A stretch of 53,846 bases of DNA from Escherichia phage mEp554. Positions 10,533 through 20,135 of the stretch are shown here, piece after piece. The notes under the pieces were generated by a model. It searched no databases. It saw only the letters and a program-made list of their open reading frames with translations, and was not told the origin of the DNA. Position numbers and translations under genes: made by a program. The DNA is taken from the sequence record PP180005; one strand, written 5' to 3'. The number at the start of each line of letters is the position of its first letter. The first letter of the stretch is position 1.

Positions 10533-11170
10533 AAACAGAATTACACAAAAAGCTGTGGACGATTCAACAAACGCTGAACGCACCGAAAAATCAGCGCAAT
10601 AATTTCGGTGGGTACAATTACAGGTCGGCGGAGGATATTTTGGAGGCGGTTAAGCCACTTCTTCAAAATATAACGCTGACTGTTAGCGATGAAATCGTCC
10701 TGATCGGCAATCGCTATTATGTGAAAGCCACTGCAACACTAAGCGACGGAGAAGATGAAATTGCGGTAACTGCTTACGCCAGGGAAGAAGAAAGCAAGAA
10801 GGGAATGGACGCAAGCCAGTTAACTGGCGCGACATCAAGTTATGCGCGTAAATACGCGTTGAACGGCTTGTTCTGCATTGATGACGCAAAAGATCCTGAT
10901 ACTGATGCTTACGCGAAACAGACAAATCAACAGCCGCGACAGCAGAAAAACACGCCGAAACAACAACCACAGCAGCAGAAAGCGCCGCCAAATCCTGATG
11001 AAGTATTAGCACGTTTCTGTGATGCGGCAGCGAAAGCGCCGGACGCTAACAAGTTGCGCGAGATATTCGGGAAGTGCTGGAAGATACTTCCTAAAGATTC
11101 AGAGCAGCAACAGAAAGCTAAAGACGTTTATGATATTCGCTTAAAAGAGCTTAACGGGGAGATCGGTTAA
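10529..11170 (+). CDS. erf: Erf-family single-strand annealing protein
   Basis: GGYNYRSAEDILEAVKPLL motif typical of ERF family; GTG start with AGGAG SD. Confidence 0.8.
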   Translation: MKTELHKKLWTIQQTLNAPKNQRNNFGGYNYRSAEDILEAVKPLLQNITLTVSDEIVLIGNRYYVKATATLSDGEDEIAVTAYAREEESKKGMDASQLTGATSSYARKYALNGLFCIDDAKDPDTDAYAKQTNQQPRQQKNTPKQQPQQQKAPPNPDEVLARFCDAAAKAPDANKLREIFGKCWKILPKDSEQQQKAKDVYDIRLKELNGEIG

Positions 11171-11637
11171 TGAGCTTAAATTCAATCACGCTGGGCGGTA
11201 ATATCGGAAATGATATGGAAGTTCGCTACACGCAAAACGGTAAAGCTATTGGTAGCTTTCCGTTAGCTGTAACGAATGGCTACGGTGATAATAAGCGGAC
11301 AATGTGGATCACTTGCCTGGTATTTGGCGAGCGTGCGGAAAAATTAGCTCCACATATTCGTAAGGGTGGAAAAATAGTGGTAAGCGGTCGCCTGGATGTT
11401 CGGCAATATGACCGGAACGACGGCACGAAGGGGACGGCGGTAGAAGTGGCGGTCAATGAATTTGAGTTCATGGCTGTTAACCAGCAAGGCCAACAGCAAG
11501 GCCAGCAGCAGGGCCAGCGCCAGCCGCCGCAACAGAATCAAGGCGGCGGCAATCAACCTCCGATGGATTTTGACGATGATATCCCATTTAGTTGCGTGGG
11601 GTTACAATATGGAAAACATAGAATCTACGCGTTGTAA
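11170..11637 (+). CDS. ssb: Single-stranded DNA-binding protein with 15-aa extension after the acidic tip
   Basis: OB-fold SSB N-terminus; Gln/Gly-rich linker; DFDDDIPF tip at 11566-11589 followed by SCVGLQYGKHRIYAL before stop. Confidence 0.85.
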   Translation: MSLNSITLGGNIGNDMEVRYTQNGKAIGSFPLAVTNGYGDNKRTMWITCLVFGERAEKLAPHIRKGGKIVVSGRLDVRQYDRNDGTKGTAVEVAVNEFEFMAVNQQGQQQGQQQGQRQPPQQNQGGGNQPPMDFDDDIPFSCVGLQYGKHRIYAL

Positions 11638-12139
11638 ACGGTGTATAAAATGTGGGGCGTTATTGCCCCTTTCTTCTTTCTATAAACATAAATTAATGGC
11701 TGACGGTCACTCAAATAAATGTAAGGAGTGTACGAAGCAAGATGTAAAAGATAATCGCAAGAAAAATATAGAACGCTACAGGGAATACGACAGAGAGCGC
11801 AACCAATCAGGGGATAGGAAAGCGTTAAGACGTCGTTATCGTCAAAGCGATGAAGGTAAGGAGGCGCATAAAAGGGCTTGCGACAAGTGGGTTAAAAATA
11901 ACGAGAAGAAGCGCCACGCCGAAATAATGGTAGGTAACGCTATCCGCGATGGCAAATTAATTAAACAACCTTGCGAAGTATGCGGCAGAGAGGACCGCGT
12001 ACACGCGCACCATTGCGATTATGATAAGCCGCTCGATGTTATGTGGCTTTGCCCGATATGCCATCGAGCGTGGCACAACGAACACGGTGAAGGAGCTAAT
12101 GCACACGACGAGGTATTAAATGGTGAGCGAATATCTTAA
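11609..12139 (+). CDS. HNH endonuclease (candidate homing endonuclease)
   Basis: CEVCGREDRVHAHHCDYDKPLDVMWLCPICHRAWH HNH motif; N-terminal CKRCIKCG zinc-finger; starts inside SSB 3' end. Confidence 0.8.
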   Translation: MENIESTRCKRCIKCGALLPLSSFYKHKLMADGHSNKCKECTKQDVKDNRKKNIERYREYDRERNQSGDRKALRRRYRQSDEGKEAHKRACDKWVKNNEKKRHAEIMVGNAIRDGKLIKQPCEVCGREDRVHAHHCDYDKPLDVMWLCPICHRAWHNEHGEGANAHDEVLNGERIS

Positions 12140-14899: not shown

Positions 14900-15092
14900 A
14901 CATTACAGAGAATGGAAGATTCCAGAATCAGCAACAAAGGCAGCGCCCGGAATATTTTCGGGCGTTTATTTTTATATGGAAGGTAAATGGTATTTCGGCA
15001 GCAGGCCGGATCACTATTATCAAGAAGTATGCAAATCTCACACATGGGACATTAAGGAGCGCGTGCAAGGCGGTGTAATAGACGAGGTTTAA
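14889..15092 (+). CDS. Hypothetical protein
   Basis: Start at MRFKHY with GAGGTG SD. Confidence 0.45.
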   Translation: MRFKHYREWKIPESATKAAPGIFSGVYFYMEGKWYFGSRPDHYYQEVCKSHTWDIKERVQGGVIDEV

Positions 15093-15093
15093 A

Positions 15094-15330
15094 ATGATTA
15101 ATGGTTTTTTAAGCTGGTTAAGAGTGTGGTTTTTTGCCACGCTTTTCGTTTTTTTGGCGTTCAGCGGTGTCATTGTCATATTTACGCTGGCGATGATGTT
15201 CATTACATGGTCAGTACCTGAATTTAACGACTTTGGAGCTATTATTGCCATCGCCCGCGCTTTATTGGCTGGTAGCGCATTTATTGGTTTTTGCTGGACT
15301 GTAGCGCCTGATTGGGGTGATGAATGGTGA
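15094..15330 (+). CDS. Hypothetical membrane protein (two hydrophobic segments)
   Basis: FFATLFVFLAFSGVIVIFTLAMMFI and AIIAIARALLAGSAFIGFCW stretches. Confidence 0.5.
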   Translation: MINGFLSWLRVWFFATLFVFLAFSGVIVIFTLAMMFITWSVPEFNDFGAIIAIARALLAGSAFIGFCWTVAPDWGDEW

Positions 15331-15334
15331 TCCT

Positions 15335-15568
15335 ATGGCTTTGTTCAATATGTCAGAACTGCAATTTAATGCCGTAAAAGCTGCCGCCCGCGCAGCGCTT
15401 TCTGCTTGCAAAGCTGAGGTAGAGAAAAACGGCTACAGCGATAAAGCCACGCGGCTGATATTAGATAAGCATTATCGCAAGGTCGCCCCGCTGATCAGCA
15501 TTGAGCGCTTTGTGTGGTTGGTGGGGTATTTAAACAACCGTTGGGGAACGGAACAGGATTATTTCTAA
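15335..15568 (+). CDS. Hypothetical protein
   Basis: Start uncertain (15320 or 15335). Confidence 0.4.
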   Translation: MALFNMSELQFNAVKAAARAALSACKAEVEKNGYSDKATRLILDKHYRKVAPLISIERFVWLVGYLNNRWGTEQDYF

Positions 15569-15581
15569 GGGGGGGGGCGTA

Positions 15582-16121
15582 ATGAAAAATGATTACGGCG
15601 GCAGCCATACGCCGAAAGAAATAAAAGACCTATGGCAAACGCCAAAACCAGTTTTTAGAGGAATGGATCGAGAATTCGAATTCGTCGCTGATGTGGCGGC
15701 AAACAAGGCAAACGCGCTAGTTCCGCGATATATAACCGAAGAAATGGACACGTTGCATTATCCGTGGGGAGCGGTGGCAATGCCTGGTGAATATGTCTGG
15801 ATGAATCCGCCATACTCAAACCCTGGTCCATTCGTTGATAAAGCGGCGCTCGAACATCAACTGAATCACATTGGTTGCGTAATGCTGTTGCCCGCTGACA
15901 TTTCTGTTAGCTGGTTCATGAACGGCGCGGAGACGGCAAACGAATGCAGATTAATAACGCGCGGGCGGCTGGCGTTTATCAATGCTGCGACTGGTAAGCC
16001 AGTGAGCGGAAACAATAAAGGGAGCTTGTTTTTGATCTGGCATCCACGATGCAGACATGAATGTATTTTTACACACATAACACGTAAAGAGCTATACGCA
16101 AGAGGTGCAGATAATGACTAG
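15582..16121 (+). CDS. Phage Dam-family DNA N6-adenine methyltransferase
   Basis: DLWQTPKPVF...YVWMNPPYS (NPPY catalytic motif) and overall length/pattern of phage Dam family. Confidence 0.8.
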   Translation: MKNDYGGSHTPKEIKDLWQTPKPVFRGMDREFEFVADVAANKANALVPRYITEEMDTLHYPWGAVAMPGEYVWMNPPYSNPGPFVDKAALEHQLNHIGCVMLLPADISVSWFMNGAETANECRLITRGRLAFINAATGKPVSGNNKGSLFLIWHPRCRHECIFTHITRKELYARGADND

Positions 16122-16611
16122 TGCGGCAGATTTACTACGAATCGCAGCGGAAACAATTGAGCAAAGAGGTAAACAAAACGGATACGACAGAAAAGAGGAA
16201 AAATCGGCGCCAAAAATAGCCACTATATATAACGCTAAGAAGGGCGCAAATTTAACCCCGCTTGATGTATGGGATCTGTTGATTTGTCTCAAGGAGGCGC
16301 GTTTAGAGGCCATTTTGGCTAATGGTAGCGATCCTGCTGACACTTTGGTTGACCTAATCAGCTACAACGCACTAAAAGCTGAGCAAATATTGAATGATCG
16401 GGATGAAGAGTTAAAGAAAAATCAGTTCACTGCCGCCAATATTAGCGATGGAATAATAAAAGATGCAGCAATAACAAGCTGTAAGGGCTTACCCCCTTCA
16501 ATGCTTAATCCTCAATGCGGTTGCATTTCAACTCGGCTTGATTTGAGTTTTGACAGATCTGAAGCTATTCGCGATAAGAGGTATGACCCAAATGAAAAAG
16601 GTGACAATTGA
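16114..16611 (+). CDS. Hypothetical protein
   Basis: AGAGGTG SD; between two methyltransferase genes. Confidence 0.5.
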   Translation: MTSAADLLRIAAETIEQRGKQNGYDRKEEKSAPKIATIYNAKKGANLTPLDVWDLLICLKEARLEAILANGSDPADTLVDLISYNALKAEQILNDRDEELKKNQFTAANISDGIIKDAAITSCKGLPPSMLNPQCGCISTRLDLSFDRSEAIRDKRYDPNEKGDN

Positions 16612-17095
16612 CAGGTTATTGGCCTGCGTTTATGTCGCCGTTTTCGTGATCATCAACCTTATTGTTAACCATTGCGGCCCGTGGGTAATTCCGATCACTA
16701 CGGTAGCCGCTGTGTGTGTCAATATGATGATCCGTGACTTCCTGTTATATGACGGCGGCTTGAAATGGTCGGCTACAACATGCGCCGCCGCTGGCGCAAT
16801 CACGGTGCTAATAAATTACGATGCAGGAATGGTAGCAATAGCGTCATTCGTCGCGGTTGTTTCCGGTGCGCTTATATCTGGCGGTGTTTACCGGGTTTTG
16901 CCTGGTGATTTCGATTCGAAACGCTGGCCTGCAAATATAGCTTCAGCCATCGGGGATGCGTTAATTTTCCCGACGCTATCGTTTATGGCGTTTATGCCGG
17001 AAATATCAGCGATGCAATTCATCTCAAAAATGGCAGCGGTGACGGTGATCACTATCATCATGCGCCGCTATTTCACGTTTGAGGGCAAAAAATGA
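16583..17095 (+). CDS. Multi-pass membrane protein, possibly DUF165/YhhQ-like transporter family (uncertain)
   Basis: At least four hydrophobic segments; ASFVAVVSGALISGGVYRV and SKRW motifs recalled as YhhQ-like; start uncertain. Confidence 0.45.
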   Translation: MTQMKKVTIDRLLACVYVAVFVIINLIVNHCGPWVIPITTVAAVCVNMMIRDFLLYDGGLKWSATTCAAAGAITVLINYDAGMVAIASFVAVVSGALISGGVYRVLPGDFDSKRWPANIASAIGDALIFPTLSFMAFMPEISAMQFISKMAAVTVITIIMRRYFTFEGKK

Positions 17096-17874
17096 GCAAG
17101 GCTAAACACTGGTTATATAATTGGCTAAGAAACTGGGTTGTGTGGTCGCTGTACGACGGCAGCGGGTACGCCGTTAAAGACTGGGCGGAAGCGGGATATA
17201 AGTGCTATTGCTTCAACTATGACGGCGCAAATCACGGCGATTATGAAGGCGTTAAAATCATTCATCCGAATATTGAATACGTTAACGTATGGATTGACAG
17301 TCACTTCCTGGTGATGTTCTCGCCTGACTTGTCAGTTTACCCAGAGCCTGACATTATCCTGGGCTTCCCGCCGTGCGACGATCTCGCCGTGTCTGGCGCT
17401 CGCTGGTTCGCTGACAAACGAAAAAAAGATCCTGACTTCCAGGTGAAGGCGGCGAATAGCGCAAAACTGGTAGAAAAACTGGCGGATATGCACAACGTGC
17501 CGTGGATGGTGGAAAATCCGGTGGGGGCACTGTCAACGCTATGGCGTAAACCGGATTTTATCTTCAATCCTTGCGCTTACGGTGGCTACCTGCCGGAAGA
17601 TGACAAACATCCTGCTTTCCCGGATGTTTACCCGGCGCGCGACGCGTATACAAAGAAAACTTGTATTTGGTGCGGTAACGGATTTAAGCAGCCGCTTTTC
17701 AGACCTGTAGATCTTAACTCTGGTGATAACCCGGGGTGGGCGAAAACAGGAGGCAGGACGAAACGAACAAAGATGATCCGCTCACTAACGCCGCGCGGCT
17801 TTGCCCGTGCTGTATTCCTGGCTAACGACCGGGCCATCAATCGTACTACGCTTAACCGTGTTTTGCCGGACTGA
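17092..17874 (+). CDS. DNA cytosine-5 methyltransferase-like protein (compact, 260 aa)
   Basis: Motif I-like LYDGSGY, motif IV-like GFPPC, motif VI ENPVG, motif IX/X-like RSLTPRGFARAV. Confidence 0.65.
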   Translation: MSKAKHWLYNWLRNWVVWSLYDGSGYAVKDWAEAGYKCYCFNYDGANHGDYEGVKIIHPNIEYVNVWIDSHFLVMFSPDLSVYPEPDIILGFPPCDDLAVSGARWFADKRKKDPDFQVKAANSAKLVEKLADMHNVPWMVENPVGALSTLWRKPDFIFNPCAYGGYLPEDDKHPAFPDVYPARDAYTKKTCIWCGNGFKQPLFRPVDLNSGDNPGWAKTGGRTKRTKMIRSLTPRGFARAVFLANDRAINRTTLNRVLPD

Positions 17875-17896
17875 AATTTACAAAATGGCGTCATTG

Positions 17897-17912
17897 CGTG
17901 ATGCGGATCACA
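17897..17912. promoter_or_regulatory. CRP-like palindrome CGTGATGCGGATCACA
   Basis: GTGA-N6-TCACA; centred about 60 bp upstream of predicted TSS of promoter CTTGTT-N17-TATACT (17929-17957). Confidence 0.35.
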
Positions 17913-18033
17913 TAATGGCGCTTTTTGTCTTGTTTGCATGTATCCATTTTGTATACTTCAAGCAAACAAAATGCTCTTTAAAAATCCGGCAGCGCTGAAA
18001 TGCGTAGAAATCACCTGAAAAGGAGAGAGCATT

Positions 18034-18210
18034 ATGCCTTTTGATAATTACCAATGGCATGACGACTATGAACGAGAGAGCGTTATGCGTGCAATGTGCA
18101 ATGTATGCAGCACGAAGAGAGGAGGCTGTAACGAGTGCAACGAATGCTTAGAACATTGGCTAAGGGCCGGACACGCCGAAAGGCTGAACGAAACAGAGAA
18201 TCAAAAATAA
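18034..18210 (+). CDS. Hypothetical Cys-rich small protein (58 aa)
   Basis: AGGAGAG SD; CNVCSTKRGGCNECNEC. Confidence 0.4.
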   Translation: MPFDNYQWHDDYERESVMRAMCNVCSTKRGGCNECNECLEHWLRAGHAERLNETENQK

Positions 18211-18224
18211 TCGGGGTGGTTTTT

Positions 18225-18830
18225 ATGCAAAACCCTAAAAAACCCATAAGACGCCGTTGCAAATGCTGCGGCGTTTTTTTTGAGCCTAAATACCATAATC
18301 AAACGTGGTGCAGTGATGAGTGTCTGGAAGAGCTGAAATTTGATCAGCTATGCCGCGACCGTGAGAAGGCTATGAAGGCTATGGAGCGGAAGAAACGCCG
18401 TGATAGCCAGCGTGAAGAACGCAACCGGAAGCGTAAACAGTTAAATCCGCGTAGTTATTGGATCAAACAAGTTCAAAATGTATTTAACGCCTATATTCGA
18501 GAACGTGACGCGCGCTTGCCGTGTATATCTTGCGGGACTTACTACGGTGAGCAATGCGGGTGGGATGCAGGCCATTACAGGACGGTAGCCGCCGCCGGAC
18601 ACCTTCGCTTCAACGAGGATAATTGCCATAAGCAATGTAGGCACTGCAACCAGACACTAGACGGCAACATCGGAGGGTATCGCCCGGCACTGATTCGAAA
18701 AATTGGCCTCGCCAGGGTGGTAGCTCTGGAGAACAACAACGAAACTCACAAATGGACGATTGCAGAATGTAAGGAGCTAATAAACATCTATCAGGCTAAA
18801 TTGGACGCCTTAAGGAGAAAGGCAGCATGA
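18225..18830 (+). CDS. ninG: NinG-family protein
   Basis: RRRCKCCGVFFEP...YWIKQVQNVFNAYIRERDARLPCISCG...WDAGHYR...LRFNEDNCHKQC closely resembles lambda NinG. Confidence 0.85.
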   Translation: MQNPKKPIRRRCKCCGVFFEPKYHNQTWCSDECLEELKFDQLCRDREKAMKAMERKKRRDSQREERNRKRKQLNPRSYWIKQVQNVFNAYIRERDARLPCISCGTYYGEQCGWDAGHYRTVAAAGHLRFNEDNCHKQCRHCNQTLDGNIGGYRPALIRKIGLARVVALENNNETHKWTIAECKELINIYQAKLDALRRKAA

Positions 18831-19234
18831 ACGAATATACATTTAGCCTACCTTACCCGCCATCGAATAATCGCTATTACCGACATTCGCGCGGTTTTCA
18901 CTATATCAGCAAAGTGGGGAAGGAATACAGGGAACAAGTAAGAGACATCATTGAGCTATTAAATTTAAATATTAACCTGCCTTGCCGACTGGCAATTGCA
19001 ATTTACGCCGCGCCGCCGGATAACCGGATCAGAGATCTGGATAATATCCCTAAATGCCTTTTTGATAGCCTTACTTATGCCGGATTCTGGATGGATGACG
19101 GGCAAATTGACTCAATAAAAATTGTCCGCTGCCGGAAGATAAAAGGCGGACGCTTGTTTATTAAGATCCGCGAACGCGGCGACCTACTACCGGATATTGA
19201 CGAATACGCGACTAATATGTGGGGTGAGCAATGA
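18827..19234 (+). CDS. rusA: RusA-family Holliday junction resolvase
   Basis: LPYPPSNNRYYRHSRG...RDLDNIPKCLFDSLTYAGFWMDDGQI matches RusA motifs. Confidence 0.85.
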   Translation: MNEYTFSLPYPPSNNRYYRHSRGFHYISKVGKEYREQVRDIIELLNLNINLPCRLAIAIYAAPPDNRIRDLDNIPKCLFDSLTYAGFWMDDGQIDSIKIVRCRKIKGGRLFIKIRERGDLLPDIDEYATNMWGEQ

Positions 19235-19413
19235 AAAACGAAATTAAAGATCTGCAAATAGATATTCAGCGCGATGAGCATGATTTAGCTACAGTCCGAC
19301 AAATCCAGGCTTTCCACATGAGAGAACTGCTTGCGCTGAAAGAGCTTGAAAGAAAGTTGGTCCAATCAATATCTGATCGTAAACGTCTGGTTGCTCGTTA
19401 CGGGGGCAAATAA
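19231..19413 (+). CDS. Hypothetical protein
   Basis: ORF in operon. Confidence 0.45.
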   Translation: MKNEIKDLQIDIQRDEHDLATVRQIQAFHMRELLALKELERKLVQSISDRKRLVARYGGK

Positions 19414-20135
19414 TGAATCTGGAATCAATTCTTAAATTCCACTTCCCAAAATCACCGCGTTTGTCAGATGAAAGCCGGGGCACGTCCCCGGATGCGCTTA
19501 ATACTACTGATGCACTAACTGCCGCAGGTATGGCGCAATCGCGCGTAGAGCTTGGTTATAGCGCTTTTTTGGGGAAGATGGAACTATCACAAGCCGAAAA
19601 GCATAAGGCCGTAGTTTTGCTTATAGAGCGTTTAAGGGCTATGGCAAAAGACTATGAATACGTTATGGAACTGGACGAGGCCAAACGCAATGATCTCATT
19701 ATTCTTGTTGCCGTTTTCGCATTTCGGGATTATTGCCAGAGTGCCGCGACGGAAAAAACTTGTATGGAGTGCGGCGGATATAAATTTACGTTTGACGAAT
19801 ACGGGGAAAAACACCTTTGTAAAAAATGCAAGGGGCATGGGACAGTTCGCAATCATTGTAAACAATGCAAGGGCCGTGGCGAAGTACCGGATAAAGCAGC
19901 CAGCGAAGCGGCGGAAATGCCAGTGTTCAAAACGTGCCAGCGCTGCGGCGGGCGCGGGTACTCGCGTTTCCCTGTAGATCTTGTCCGGCAGGCGGTTAAT
20001 CAGCTTGTTTTTCCGGTAAGCCGATCAACATGGTGGAAGAAATACCGGGCTTTCTATGAAGACGCCATTGCCGAATTGTTCAAAGAAGAGGCGCGGGCTG
20101 ACAACGAAATTAAACGAGTGACGCGGGGTGAATGA
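19413..20135 (+). CDS. Q-like late antiterminator (phage 82 type) with four CxxCxGxG zinc-finger repeats
   Basis: N-terminal MNLESILKFHF...SRGTSPDAL recalled as Q82-family; CMECGGYK, CKKCKGHG, CKQCKGRG, CQRCGGRG. Confidence 0.6.
   Translation: MNLESILKFHFPKSPRLSDESRGTSPDALNTTDALTAAGMAQSRVELGYSAFLGKMELSQAEKHKAVVLLIERLRAMAKDYEYVMELDEAKRNDLIILVAVFAFRDYCQSAATEKTCMECGGYKFTFDEYGEKHLCKKCKGHGTVRNHCKQCKGRGEVPDKAASEAAEMPVFKTCQRCGGRGYSRFPVDLVRQAVNQLVFPVSRSTWWKKYRAFYEDAIAELFKEEARADNEIKRVTRGE

Follow-up and report, generated by a model that had tools for sequence, protein, structure and literature searches.

The genome of Escherichia phage mEp554 (sequence record PP180005), analysed here as a single window of 53,846 nucleotides (nt), carries on its forward strand a block of four overlapping genes: gene 1 (15582-16121), which encodes a phage Dam-type N6-adenine DNA methyltransferase of 179 amino acids (aa), recognised by hidden Markov model (HMM) matches and an NPPY motif; gene 2 (16114-16611), a DUF6378 protein of 165 aa; gene 3 (16592-17095), a divergent six-helix inner-membrane permease of the VUT/YhhQ family, 167 aa in length and placed there by profile-level homology; and gene 4 (17092-17874), a compact 260-aa protein with a C5-cytosine-methyltransferase fold. 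An earlier note on this DNA had suggested that a transporter-like protein embedded between two DNA-modifying enzymes could indicate a non-canonical DNA modification used against host restriction. The evidence assembled here points elsewhere. It is probable, if well short of certain, that the cassette combines independent anti-restriction methylases with an orphan transporter as separately exchangeable modules and not as one pathway, and a novel modification dependent on the transporter is unlikely.

That these four are genes and not chance open reading frames (ORFs) follows from strong HMM matches, nucleotide conservation and pairwise ratios of nonsynonymous to synonymous substitution (dN/dS) of 0.02-0.30, the ratios for the four genes being taken between the window and its close full-length relatives (13 comparisons). 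Together they would form an accessory-gene slot, translationally coupled and bounded by terminators, within the delayed-early (nin-like) operon of this temperate coliphage, which is mEp021-like.

Family membership of the gene 3 transporter

The Pfam HMM searches proposed in the earlier note identified gene 1 as Dam, left gene 3 below the cut-off of its family and returned no match for gene 4. The description of gene 3 as a multi-pass membrane protein is borne out along three lines: an AlphaFold2 (AF2) model holds six helices, at a low confidence (predicted local distance difference test, pLDDT, of 60, from a shallow 7-sequence alignment); a hydropathy scan agrees with that number; and the annotation of the related phage mEp021 records six transmembrane (TM) segments by TMHMM and Phobius. 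Its likening to the DUF165/YhhQ transporters holds at the level of profiles and fails at that of a direct Pfam match. Compared directly with Vut_1 (PF02592), gene 3 scores 12.1 bits (E = 0.26), short of the 27.2-bit cut-off, even though profile positions 6-149 of 152 are covered by the alignment; its match to phrog_4899 is strong (E = 1.4e-46). A profile search with the alignment of the gene 3 clade found 287 cluster representatives, and Vut_1 was matched by 64 of the 67 relatives so found that were scanned (best E = 2.5e-15), one relative being fused to a QueF-like domain. In hhalign comparisons, the family profile built from a deep alignment with the window protein as its first row (A3) aligned with Escherichia coli YhhQ across ~140 columns (probability 92.8%, E = 4e-7) and with YhhQ gp41 of phage CAjan (97.3%, E = 2e-11). 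This signal comes from the deep alignment only, the shallow clade alignment (A1) reaching a probability of 0.1% against YhhQ, and direct sequence searches of genes 3 and 4 against the PDB returned nothing meaningful. At the profile level, then, gene 3 shares genuine homology with the YhhQ/VUT permeases (COG1738).

Within this family, E. coli YhhQ is described as a characterised importer of preQ0 and preQ1 (Zallot 2017, as cited in Hutinet 2019). At 221 aa it is longer than gene 3, the two share ~23% identity where hhalign aligns the family profile to YhhQ, and two aspartates conserved in YhhQ are replaced in gene 3. The closer likeness is to the short phage proteins, namely CAjan gp41 ('putative preQ0 transporter', 159 aa) and the 'VUT family protein' of Drexlerviridae and PEAT2, which have the same six-helix form of ~160 aa and the same location among early DNA-metabolism genes. 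Gene 3 keeps the family-invariant R-D, D(S/A)xxFP and K residues of these CAjan-type proteins, and the most conserved positions of the family, R48-D49, N115, D122, F131 and K146, are all retained. It differs from them in falling below the Vut_1 threshold, in substitutions of N36 to T, D44 to N, D96 to S and S123 to A, in belonging to a separate monophyletic clade, and in having neither an adjacent DpdA nor genes for preQ0 synthesis.

DpdA and the orphan transporter clade

The company that the transporter keeps elsewhere gives this last difference its meaning. Relatives of gene 3 at 31-37% identity occur on at least 542 IMG/VR contigs, and pairing was counted on 80 fetched viral loci carrying such relatives. 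At 75 of these 80 loci, a DpdA-like gene (~250 aa) lies on the same strand no more than 194 nt from Vut, the distance being at most 100 nt at 71 of the 75; two of the five loci that lack the pair end at a contig edge. The neighbouring gene matches phrog_887, 'queuine tRNA-ribosyltransferase' (E = 2.5e-44), and the corresponding DpdA-like HMM matches the CAjan DpdA (E = 4e-16), DSGAF motif included. The latter protein is genetically validated: its deletion abolishes preQ0 in CAjan DNA, and the CAjan transporter is dispensable for the 7-deazaguanine modification (PMC7544227). The pair recurs in the isolates LHE71 and Opt-719 (Drexlerviridae) and PEAT2, and in AB3P2, where the evidence is confined to the annotation, a gene labelled queuine tRNA-ribosyltransferase is next to the Vut match. 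So tight a pairing implies that short phage VUTs normally partner a 7-deazaguanine DNA transglycosylase.

Two of these isolates deserve mention in their own right. In the T1-like Drexlerviridae LHE71 (OP455115; locus L087, 3501-4804) and vB_EcoD_Opt-719 (locus L085, 3501-4804), the DpdA-like gene of the pair is annotated 'hypothetical protein' and matches the HMM at E = 1e-59 to 1e-64; in both phages, 7-deazaguanine derived from preQ0 of the host, or from preQ0 taken up by import, may be present in the DNA. A compact C5-like gene, in a split copy, lies on the opposite strand of LHE71 ~2 kb upstream of Vut-DpdA.

No such partner was found in mEp554. With every filter disabled (--max), the DpdA HMM gave no match in the six-frame translation of the window (best E = 2.2). 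Searches of the same translation with CAjan DpdA, FolE, QueD, QueC and QueE and with the DpdA proteins of LHE71 and PEAT2 likewise found none, the best phmmer E-value with the CAjan proteins being 0.31. PHROG scans of the ten largest non-structural ORFs of the window turned up no tRNA-guanine transglycosylase (TGT), their matches being to integrase, helicase, exonuclease, Ant, replication initiator and endonuclease, with some unknowns. The annotations of the related phages MagusPhagus (pharokka-style) and mEp021 list no DpdA or preQ0-synthesis gene, and none of 52 loci of the gene 3 clade has DpdA within 7 kb. The earlier note was thus right to state that no TGT/DpdA-like gene is present. Since both DpdA and the preQ0-synthesis genes are absent, the phage cannot make 7-deazaguanine DNA with its own enzymes, and a phage-autonomous 7-deazaguanine pathway is excluded.

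A neighbour-joining (NJ) tree unites the gene 3 protein with those of L169 (51-54% identical to it), L170 (44-45%) and two large contigs of 95-129 kb in a DpdA-less clade with a bootstrap of 98/100, sister to the DpdA-linked Drexlerviridae proteins. Members of this clade share N36T, D44N, D96S/A and S123A at positions that are conserved in DpdA-linked Vuts, D44 and D96 being conserved in E. coli YhhQ too. Judged from the alignment, this signature may mark a change of substrate or of coupling, and D44N, D96S and S123A are compatible with a substrate switch; since other members of the family at large differ at these positions, it is no more than a hint of altered specificity.

Orphan Vut genes of 34-36% identity were also seen on contigs of 94-140 kb (L003, 8001-8501; L174, 6001-6495; L227-L231) from large enterobacterial phages, which we guess to be T5-like on the strength of their size and a neighbouring DNA ligase. 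There they directly follow a DNA ligase gene, with no DpdA within 6-8 kb. One of these contigs, IMGVR_UViG_3300010279_000001, carries both an orphan Vut and a compact C5-like gene, ~60 kb apart (L110/L227).

Selection on gene 3 is severe. Against 12 close full-length relatives its dN/dS is 0.02-0.04 at a dS of 0.24-0.41, the lowest of the block; the thirteenth relative (L090) encodes an identical protein at a dS of 0.03 and is uninformative. Among 46 relatives, that is, 46 mEp021-like viral contigs scored for intact, split or lost block genes, gene 3 is intact in all 46; for each of Dam, DUF6378 and C5 there are contigs in which the gene is split or absent. A clade that is uncoupled from DpdA and yet supplies the most constrained gene of its cassette implies that the transporter has a selectable function of its own. 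These values also bear on the idea that gene 3 is a decaying, functionless remnant of an ancestral Vut-DpdA module. The loss of DpdA would fit such decay, and a deletion that fuses Dam to Vut in the P0129 lineage shows that the gene can be lost, but gene 3 is both the slowest-evolving and the only uniformly intact member of its block, and the DpdA-less clade is both monophyletic and old, with members 35-54% identical; we therefore regard decay as very improbable. The P0129 deletion itself (L097, 4654-5007; 7 contigs), which belongs to an mEp021-like lineage, joins an N-terminal part of Dam to the C-terminal half of Vut and removes DUF6378, and the fused remnant is under relaxed constraint (dN/dS 0.20), with the downstream C5-like gene intact.

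If gene 3 is functional, its partner might lie outside the phage, the transporter feeding preQ0 to a DpdA supplied in trans by a host dpd island or a co-resident prophage, so that phage DNA would carry 7-deazaguanine in some hosts. The extreme tightness of Vut-DpdA pairing among relatives speaks for this, as does strong purifying selection on a Vut that has no phage partner, which implies host factors. The mEp phages, however, are propagated on E. coli K-12, which is not known to have a dpd cluster, and the signature substitutions of the orphan clade suggest a changed function; provision of DpdA in trans is therefore an unlikely account.

A further option is co-option of gene 3 to some membrane function other than import, such as superinfection exclusion, interference with host YhhQ or a disturbance of the membrane that aids lysis timing. 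Small polytopic phage membrane proteins often have such roles, and the polar residues substituted in the orphan clade are ones that the family conserves. Set against this are the retained residues R48-D49 to K146 listed above, the absence of any PADLOC match, and the position of the gene in a lytic early operon and not at a site typical of a lysogen-expressed moron, all of which make co-option improbable.

What remains most plausible, by analogy, as the role of the transporter is the import of a queuosine-precursor-type base for host enzymes, a role suggested for phages that carry Que genes without DpdA: boosting of tRNA queuosine has been proposed for the Que genes of such phages, in a paper that noted no correlation of phage YhhQ homologues with a specific phage group (Hutinet 2019). 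A 2023 paper on 7-deazaguanine does not mention transporters. A changed substrate of gene 3 is a serious alternative. On the broader proposal that the whole DpdA-less VUT clade acts as an auxiliary phage importer apart from DNA modification, bringing in either queuosine precursors, so as to shift host tRNA-Q34 decoding in favour of phage translation, or a new substrate, we are tentative, and rather more doubtful than convinced.

The methyltransferases, DUF6378 and the question of coupling

The identity of gene 1 is straightforward. It matches the minimal phage Dam family over its full length and above both curated cut-offs (PF05869, 174.7 bits against 28.1, E = 1.6e-51; TIGR01712, 140.5 bits against 97.05), as well as phrog_111 (E = 2.8e-63), and its translation holds WMNPPYSN, which contains the catalytic (D/N)PPY motif. 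The reading of gene 1 in the earlier note as a Dam-family N6-adenine methyltransferase with NPPY is thus confirmed, and no difference from the family was seen; PADLOC labels the gene an 'orphan methyltransferase'. Its dN/dS is 0.03-0.07 in 12 of the 13 comparisons and 0.16 in the remaining one. The Dam proteins of phages T1, HP1 and VT2 are members of the same family, and by analogy with members described in the literature the target is probably GATC.

Gene 2 is less conserved. Its match to PF19905 (DUF6378) is confined to residues 10-93 (E = 1.4e-7), in keeping with an alignment (A4) in which a conserved domain takes up the N-terminal ~95 aa and is followed by ~70 hypervariable C-terminal aa, the latter being missing altogether from a 99-aa homologue. 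With a dN/dS of 0.08-0.30 it is the fastest-evolving of the four genes. PHROG matches were to phrog_9871/474; neither the sequence nor the DUF6378 profile found a relative in the PDB; the homologue search gave only close relatives (at least 64% identity) among the matches listed, with no functional lead; a literature search on DUF6378 turned up nothing useful; and PADLOC reported no defence-system match for genes 2, 3 and 4. The gene is frameshifted into 2-3 ORFs in 5 of the 46 relatives (L205, L207, L208, L210 and L214), and DUF6378 also occurs near Dam in the otherwise different phage contigs L113, L114 and L116. The protein may be a small soluble accessory that tends to travel with Dam. A suspected resemblance between DUF6378 and the genes neighbouring the 36%-identical Vut of a 95-kb contig was tested, and none was found.

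The phage family of gene 4 is a very large one. Gene 4 matches phrog_757 (E = 4.1e-87) and itself has no Pfam or NCBIfam match, although 9 of 20 homologues match PF00145 (best E = 1.2e-5), and the family comprises at least 7,698 proteins, counted among 8,000 candidates scored. The earlier note had listed C5-methyltransferase motifs I, IV, VI and IX-X. Motifs I (DGSG), IV (FPPC) and VI (ENPV) are present, together with a motif VIII-like KKTCxWxGNGF and a C-terminal motif IX-like segment, RSLTPRGFARAV, which fits R.LT.RE.ARLQ; a canonical motif X (GNAV; GN(A/S)V) is not recognisable, unlike in the CmoX sequence. DGSG, FPPC, ENPV, KKTCxWxGNGF and RSLTPRGFAxAV are invariant in 20 homologues, most of which end within ~15 residues after the motif IX-like segment. 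The equivalent of a target-recognition domain (TRD) amounts to the ~30 residues between KKTCxWxGNGF and RSLTPR, and the AF2 model (pLDDT 84.6) has DNMT3B and DNMT3A as its best Foldseek matches (E ~1e-6), which places it in the C5-methyltransferase fold; the judgement that the protein is too small for a normal TRD was therefore sound. Judged by this model, gene 4 is a genuine C5-methyltransferase-fold enzyme of minimal size, and it has been kept under selection (dN/dS 0.06-0.14). Because it has almost no recognition domain, its cytosine target is probably a very short motif.

Comparison with minimal-TRD C5 methyltransferases, namely the catalytic domains of DNMT3A/3B and CmoX (PDB 8YF3), sharpens this picture. 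Gene 4 is smaller still, with a core of ~230 aa, and differs from them in its ~30-aa TRD equivalent and unrecognisable motif X, in having FPPC where they have SPPC or GPPC, and in lacking a CmoA partner. Limited literature searches found no published characterisation of specificity or cofactor for the ultra-compact family, and nothing useful on its occurrence in T1-like phages.

Do these genes work together? Among 80 viral loci carrying gene 4 homologues, Vut lies within 5 kb at 12, all of them mEp021-like, and the remaining 68 (42-63% identity) have no Vut within that distance; DpdA was found near none of the 80. Three of the 46 mEp021-like relatives (L181, L220 and L188) lack gene 4, and in each of them Vut is intact. 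The orphan clade, for its part, has no constant neighbour: elsewhere its members lie beside a DNA ligase together with a MazG-like or lysozyme-like protein, or, at another locus, beside two small unknowns with an N6_N4 methyltransferase two genes away. The regular partner of the transporter family is DpdA and not a methylase. These distributions count against the proposal in the earlier note that the transporter and the methylases flanking it collaborate in a non-canonical modification.

The replacement alleles are themselves of some interest. In L181 (7501-8028), the C5-like gene has given way to a 175-aa HNH/AP2-type homing-endonuclease-like gene with the same 4-nt overlap with Vut, and in L220 (7504-7582) it is cleanly deleted. 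A candidate C5-like gene downstream of the 36%-identical Vut of the 95-kb contig was ruled out, being MazG-like.

The most explicit form of coupling would have the transporter import a precursor that the methyltransferase-like enzymes or DUF6378 install in DNA, in one version through a C5-fold enzyme using a non-S-adenosylmethionine (non-SAM) cofactor in the manner of CmoX and carboxy-SAM (Cx-SAM). In HhaI and CmoX the choice of cofactor depends on motif X, and the host E. coli CmoA could supply Cx-SAM (PMC12783734), so that the unrecognisable motif X of gene 4 would leave room for such an arrangement; a divergent lineage retains the order of the four genes, and the 4-nt overlap between Vut and gene 4 equals that between Vut and DpdA in LHE71. 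On the other side, a C5-like family of >7,600 members does without Vut outside the mEp021 lineage, Vut persists intact where gene 4 has been deleted or replaced, and the orphan clade associates with no fixed gene. The CmoX signature (SPPC plus an Arg in place of the motif X Asn) is not matched either: gene 4 has FPPC, and R239, the sole basic residue at the candidate cofactor position, varies among R, K, L and A in homologues. Alignment of the C5-like family with a CmoX homologue by hhalign covered motifs I-IV only and left the motif X position unmapped. No CmoA or ligase gene was found in the window, and VUT substrates are bases or vitamins, not known methyltransferase cofactors. Coupled modification is accordingly quite unlikely.

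On the modular reading that we prefer, Dam and the compact C5 enzyme would methylate replicating phage DNA to give N6-methyladenine (m6A) and 5-methylcytosine (m5C), and this methylation would blunt restriction in the next host. Gene 3 would separately import a 7-deazapurine-type base during lytic growth into the host queuosine-tRNA pathway (QueF, Tgt) or, given the clade-specific substitutions at conserved polar positions, might import a different small metabolite.

Several points weigh against this reading and temper our confidence in it. The order Dam-DUF6378-Vut-C5-NinG-RusA-Q is kept in L169, where Vut is 51-54% and C5 65-67% identical, and this synteny could reflect functional linkage; inheritance within one phage lineage explains it equally well. 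The cofactor of gene 4 is uncertain because of its unrecognisable motif X. The AF2 model of gene 3 is too poor for a test of its fold, a BFVD search with it returning noise only, and the inspection of the large-phage contigs covered 6-8 kb on each side of Vut. Because E. coli itself synthesises preQ0 and encodes a YhhQ, the benefit of a phage importer is unclear, and D44N, D96S/A and S123A imply that the substrate may not be preQ0 or preQ1 at all.

Genomic setting and meaning

The architecture of the block is compact. Successive genes overlap by 8, 20 and 4 nt; gene 2 runs to 168 aa if begun at the GTG at 16105 instead of the ATG at 16114, and the gene 3 ORF would span 16550-17095 (181 aa) from a TTG, although the ATG at 16592 is taken as its true start because the N-termini of its homologues begin there. 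Upstream, a consensus scan located a terminator-like hairpin followed by a T-run at 14942-14966 on the forward strand, the upstream boundary of the transcription unit. It corresponds to TERM_3 (t3) of mEp021, an equivalence that is positional (L001 5945-5965 in the mEp021 annotation, L001 6001 being window position 15000). Directly 3' of gene 4, RNA folding identified a forward-strand intrinsic-terminator hairpin followed by UUUUUG (17886-17926; -24 kcal/mol, z = -5.4, a stability reached by 0 of 200 shuffled sequences), at the place where the mEp021 annotation has TERM_4 (t4). The nutR2 site described for mEp021 (PMC11893012) lies in a region adjoining TERM_4. The gene overlaps and the flanking terminators together indicate that the four genes and two small upstream ORFs (15094-15330 and 15317-15568) constitute one translationally coupled unit. 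Of the two small ORFs, one encodes a very hydrophobic 78-aa protein and the other a homologue of mEp021 'ipe' (inducer of pleiotropic effects), which is under strong purifying selection (dN/dS 0.03-0.12).

The phage group in which this unit resides can be traced at the nucleotide level. Window positions 15000-18900 are 89-92% identical to the temperate coliphages mEp010, mEp515, mEp021, mEp013, mEp044 and MagusPhagus, and the four-gene block keeps 88-95% nucleotide identity across 6 complete phage genomes (7 records if a 1.45-kb mEp021 fragment is counted beside them) and 35 E. coli prophages, the latter drawn from 5,426 complete E. coli genomes. The mEp021-type phages form a non-lambdoid, Nus-dependent 'mEpimmI' group (PMC11893012). 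In mEp021 the same block, at 91% nucleotide identity, is gp30-gp33 (MH706966; PMC11893012), between TERM_3 and TERM_4 and upstream of NinF, NinG, RusA and Q homologues. It is annotated there as a putative Dam, a hypothetical protein, a putative membrane protein with six TM segments and a putative DNA cytosine methyltransferase; that annotation, as published, makes no link between the membrane protein and VUT/YhhQ and leaves the absence of DpdA undiscussed.

Other features of the window stand apart from the block. A Q-like late antiterminator homologue with several CxxC pairs lies at 19413-20135, and its counterpart in L169 has, beside Antiterm (PF03589), a 'faint' Pfam match to DnaJ_CXXCXGXG. 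On the reverse strand, a 220-aa ORF adjoining the integrase (1570-2232) has no PHROG match at an E threshold of 1e-3 and may be a lysogeny-associated moron or a defence gene. At 11456-12139, a 227-aa HNH/endonuclease VII-like ORF (phrog_2340, E = 2.4e-47, with a weak Lar-like restriction-alleviation match) overlaps a 155-aa ORF (11170-11637) that sits at the position of the mEp021 single-stranded DNA-binding protein (SSB) gene; it may be another anti-restriction or homing element.

These observations alter how several phage genes are to be read. The 'hypothetical' or 'putative membrane protein' of mEp021-like phages is re-annotated as a VUT/YhhQ relative, hitherto unannotated Vut-DpdA pairs in T1-like coliphages are brought to notice, and a very large family of ultra-compact C5-methyltransferase-fold enzymes is highlighted. 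Until now, YhhQ-type transporters of phages have been taken to assist 7-deazaguanine DNA modification, a pattern from which the whole uncoupled clade described here departs, and the phage group that carries the orphan transporter is common in human-gut E. coli. Manipulation of tRNA queuosine, a new substrate and the use of a host DpdA are the candidate functions, and knowing which of them the transporter serves would clarify why 'orphan' queuosine-pathway genes scatter through phage genomes. Should the loading of queuosine precursors or of a new substrate prove true, it would represent a new kind of phage-host metabolic takeover.

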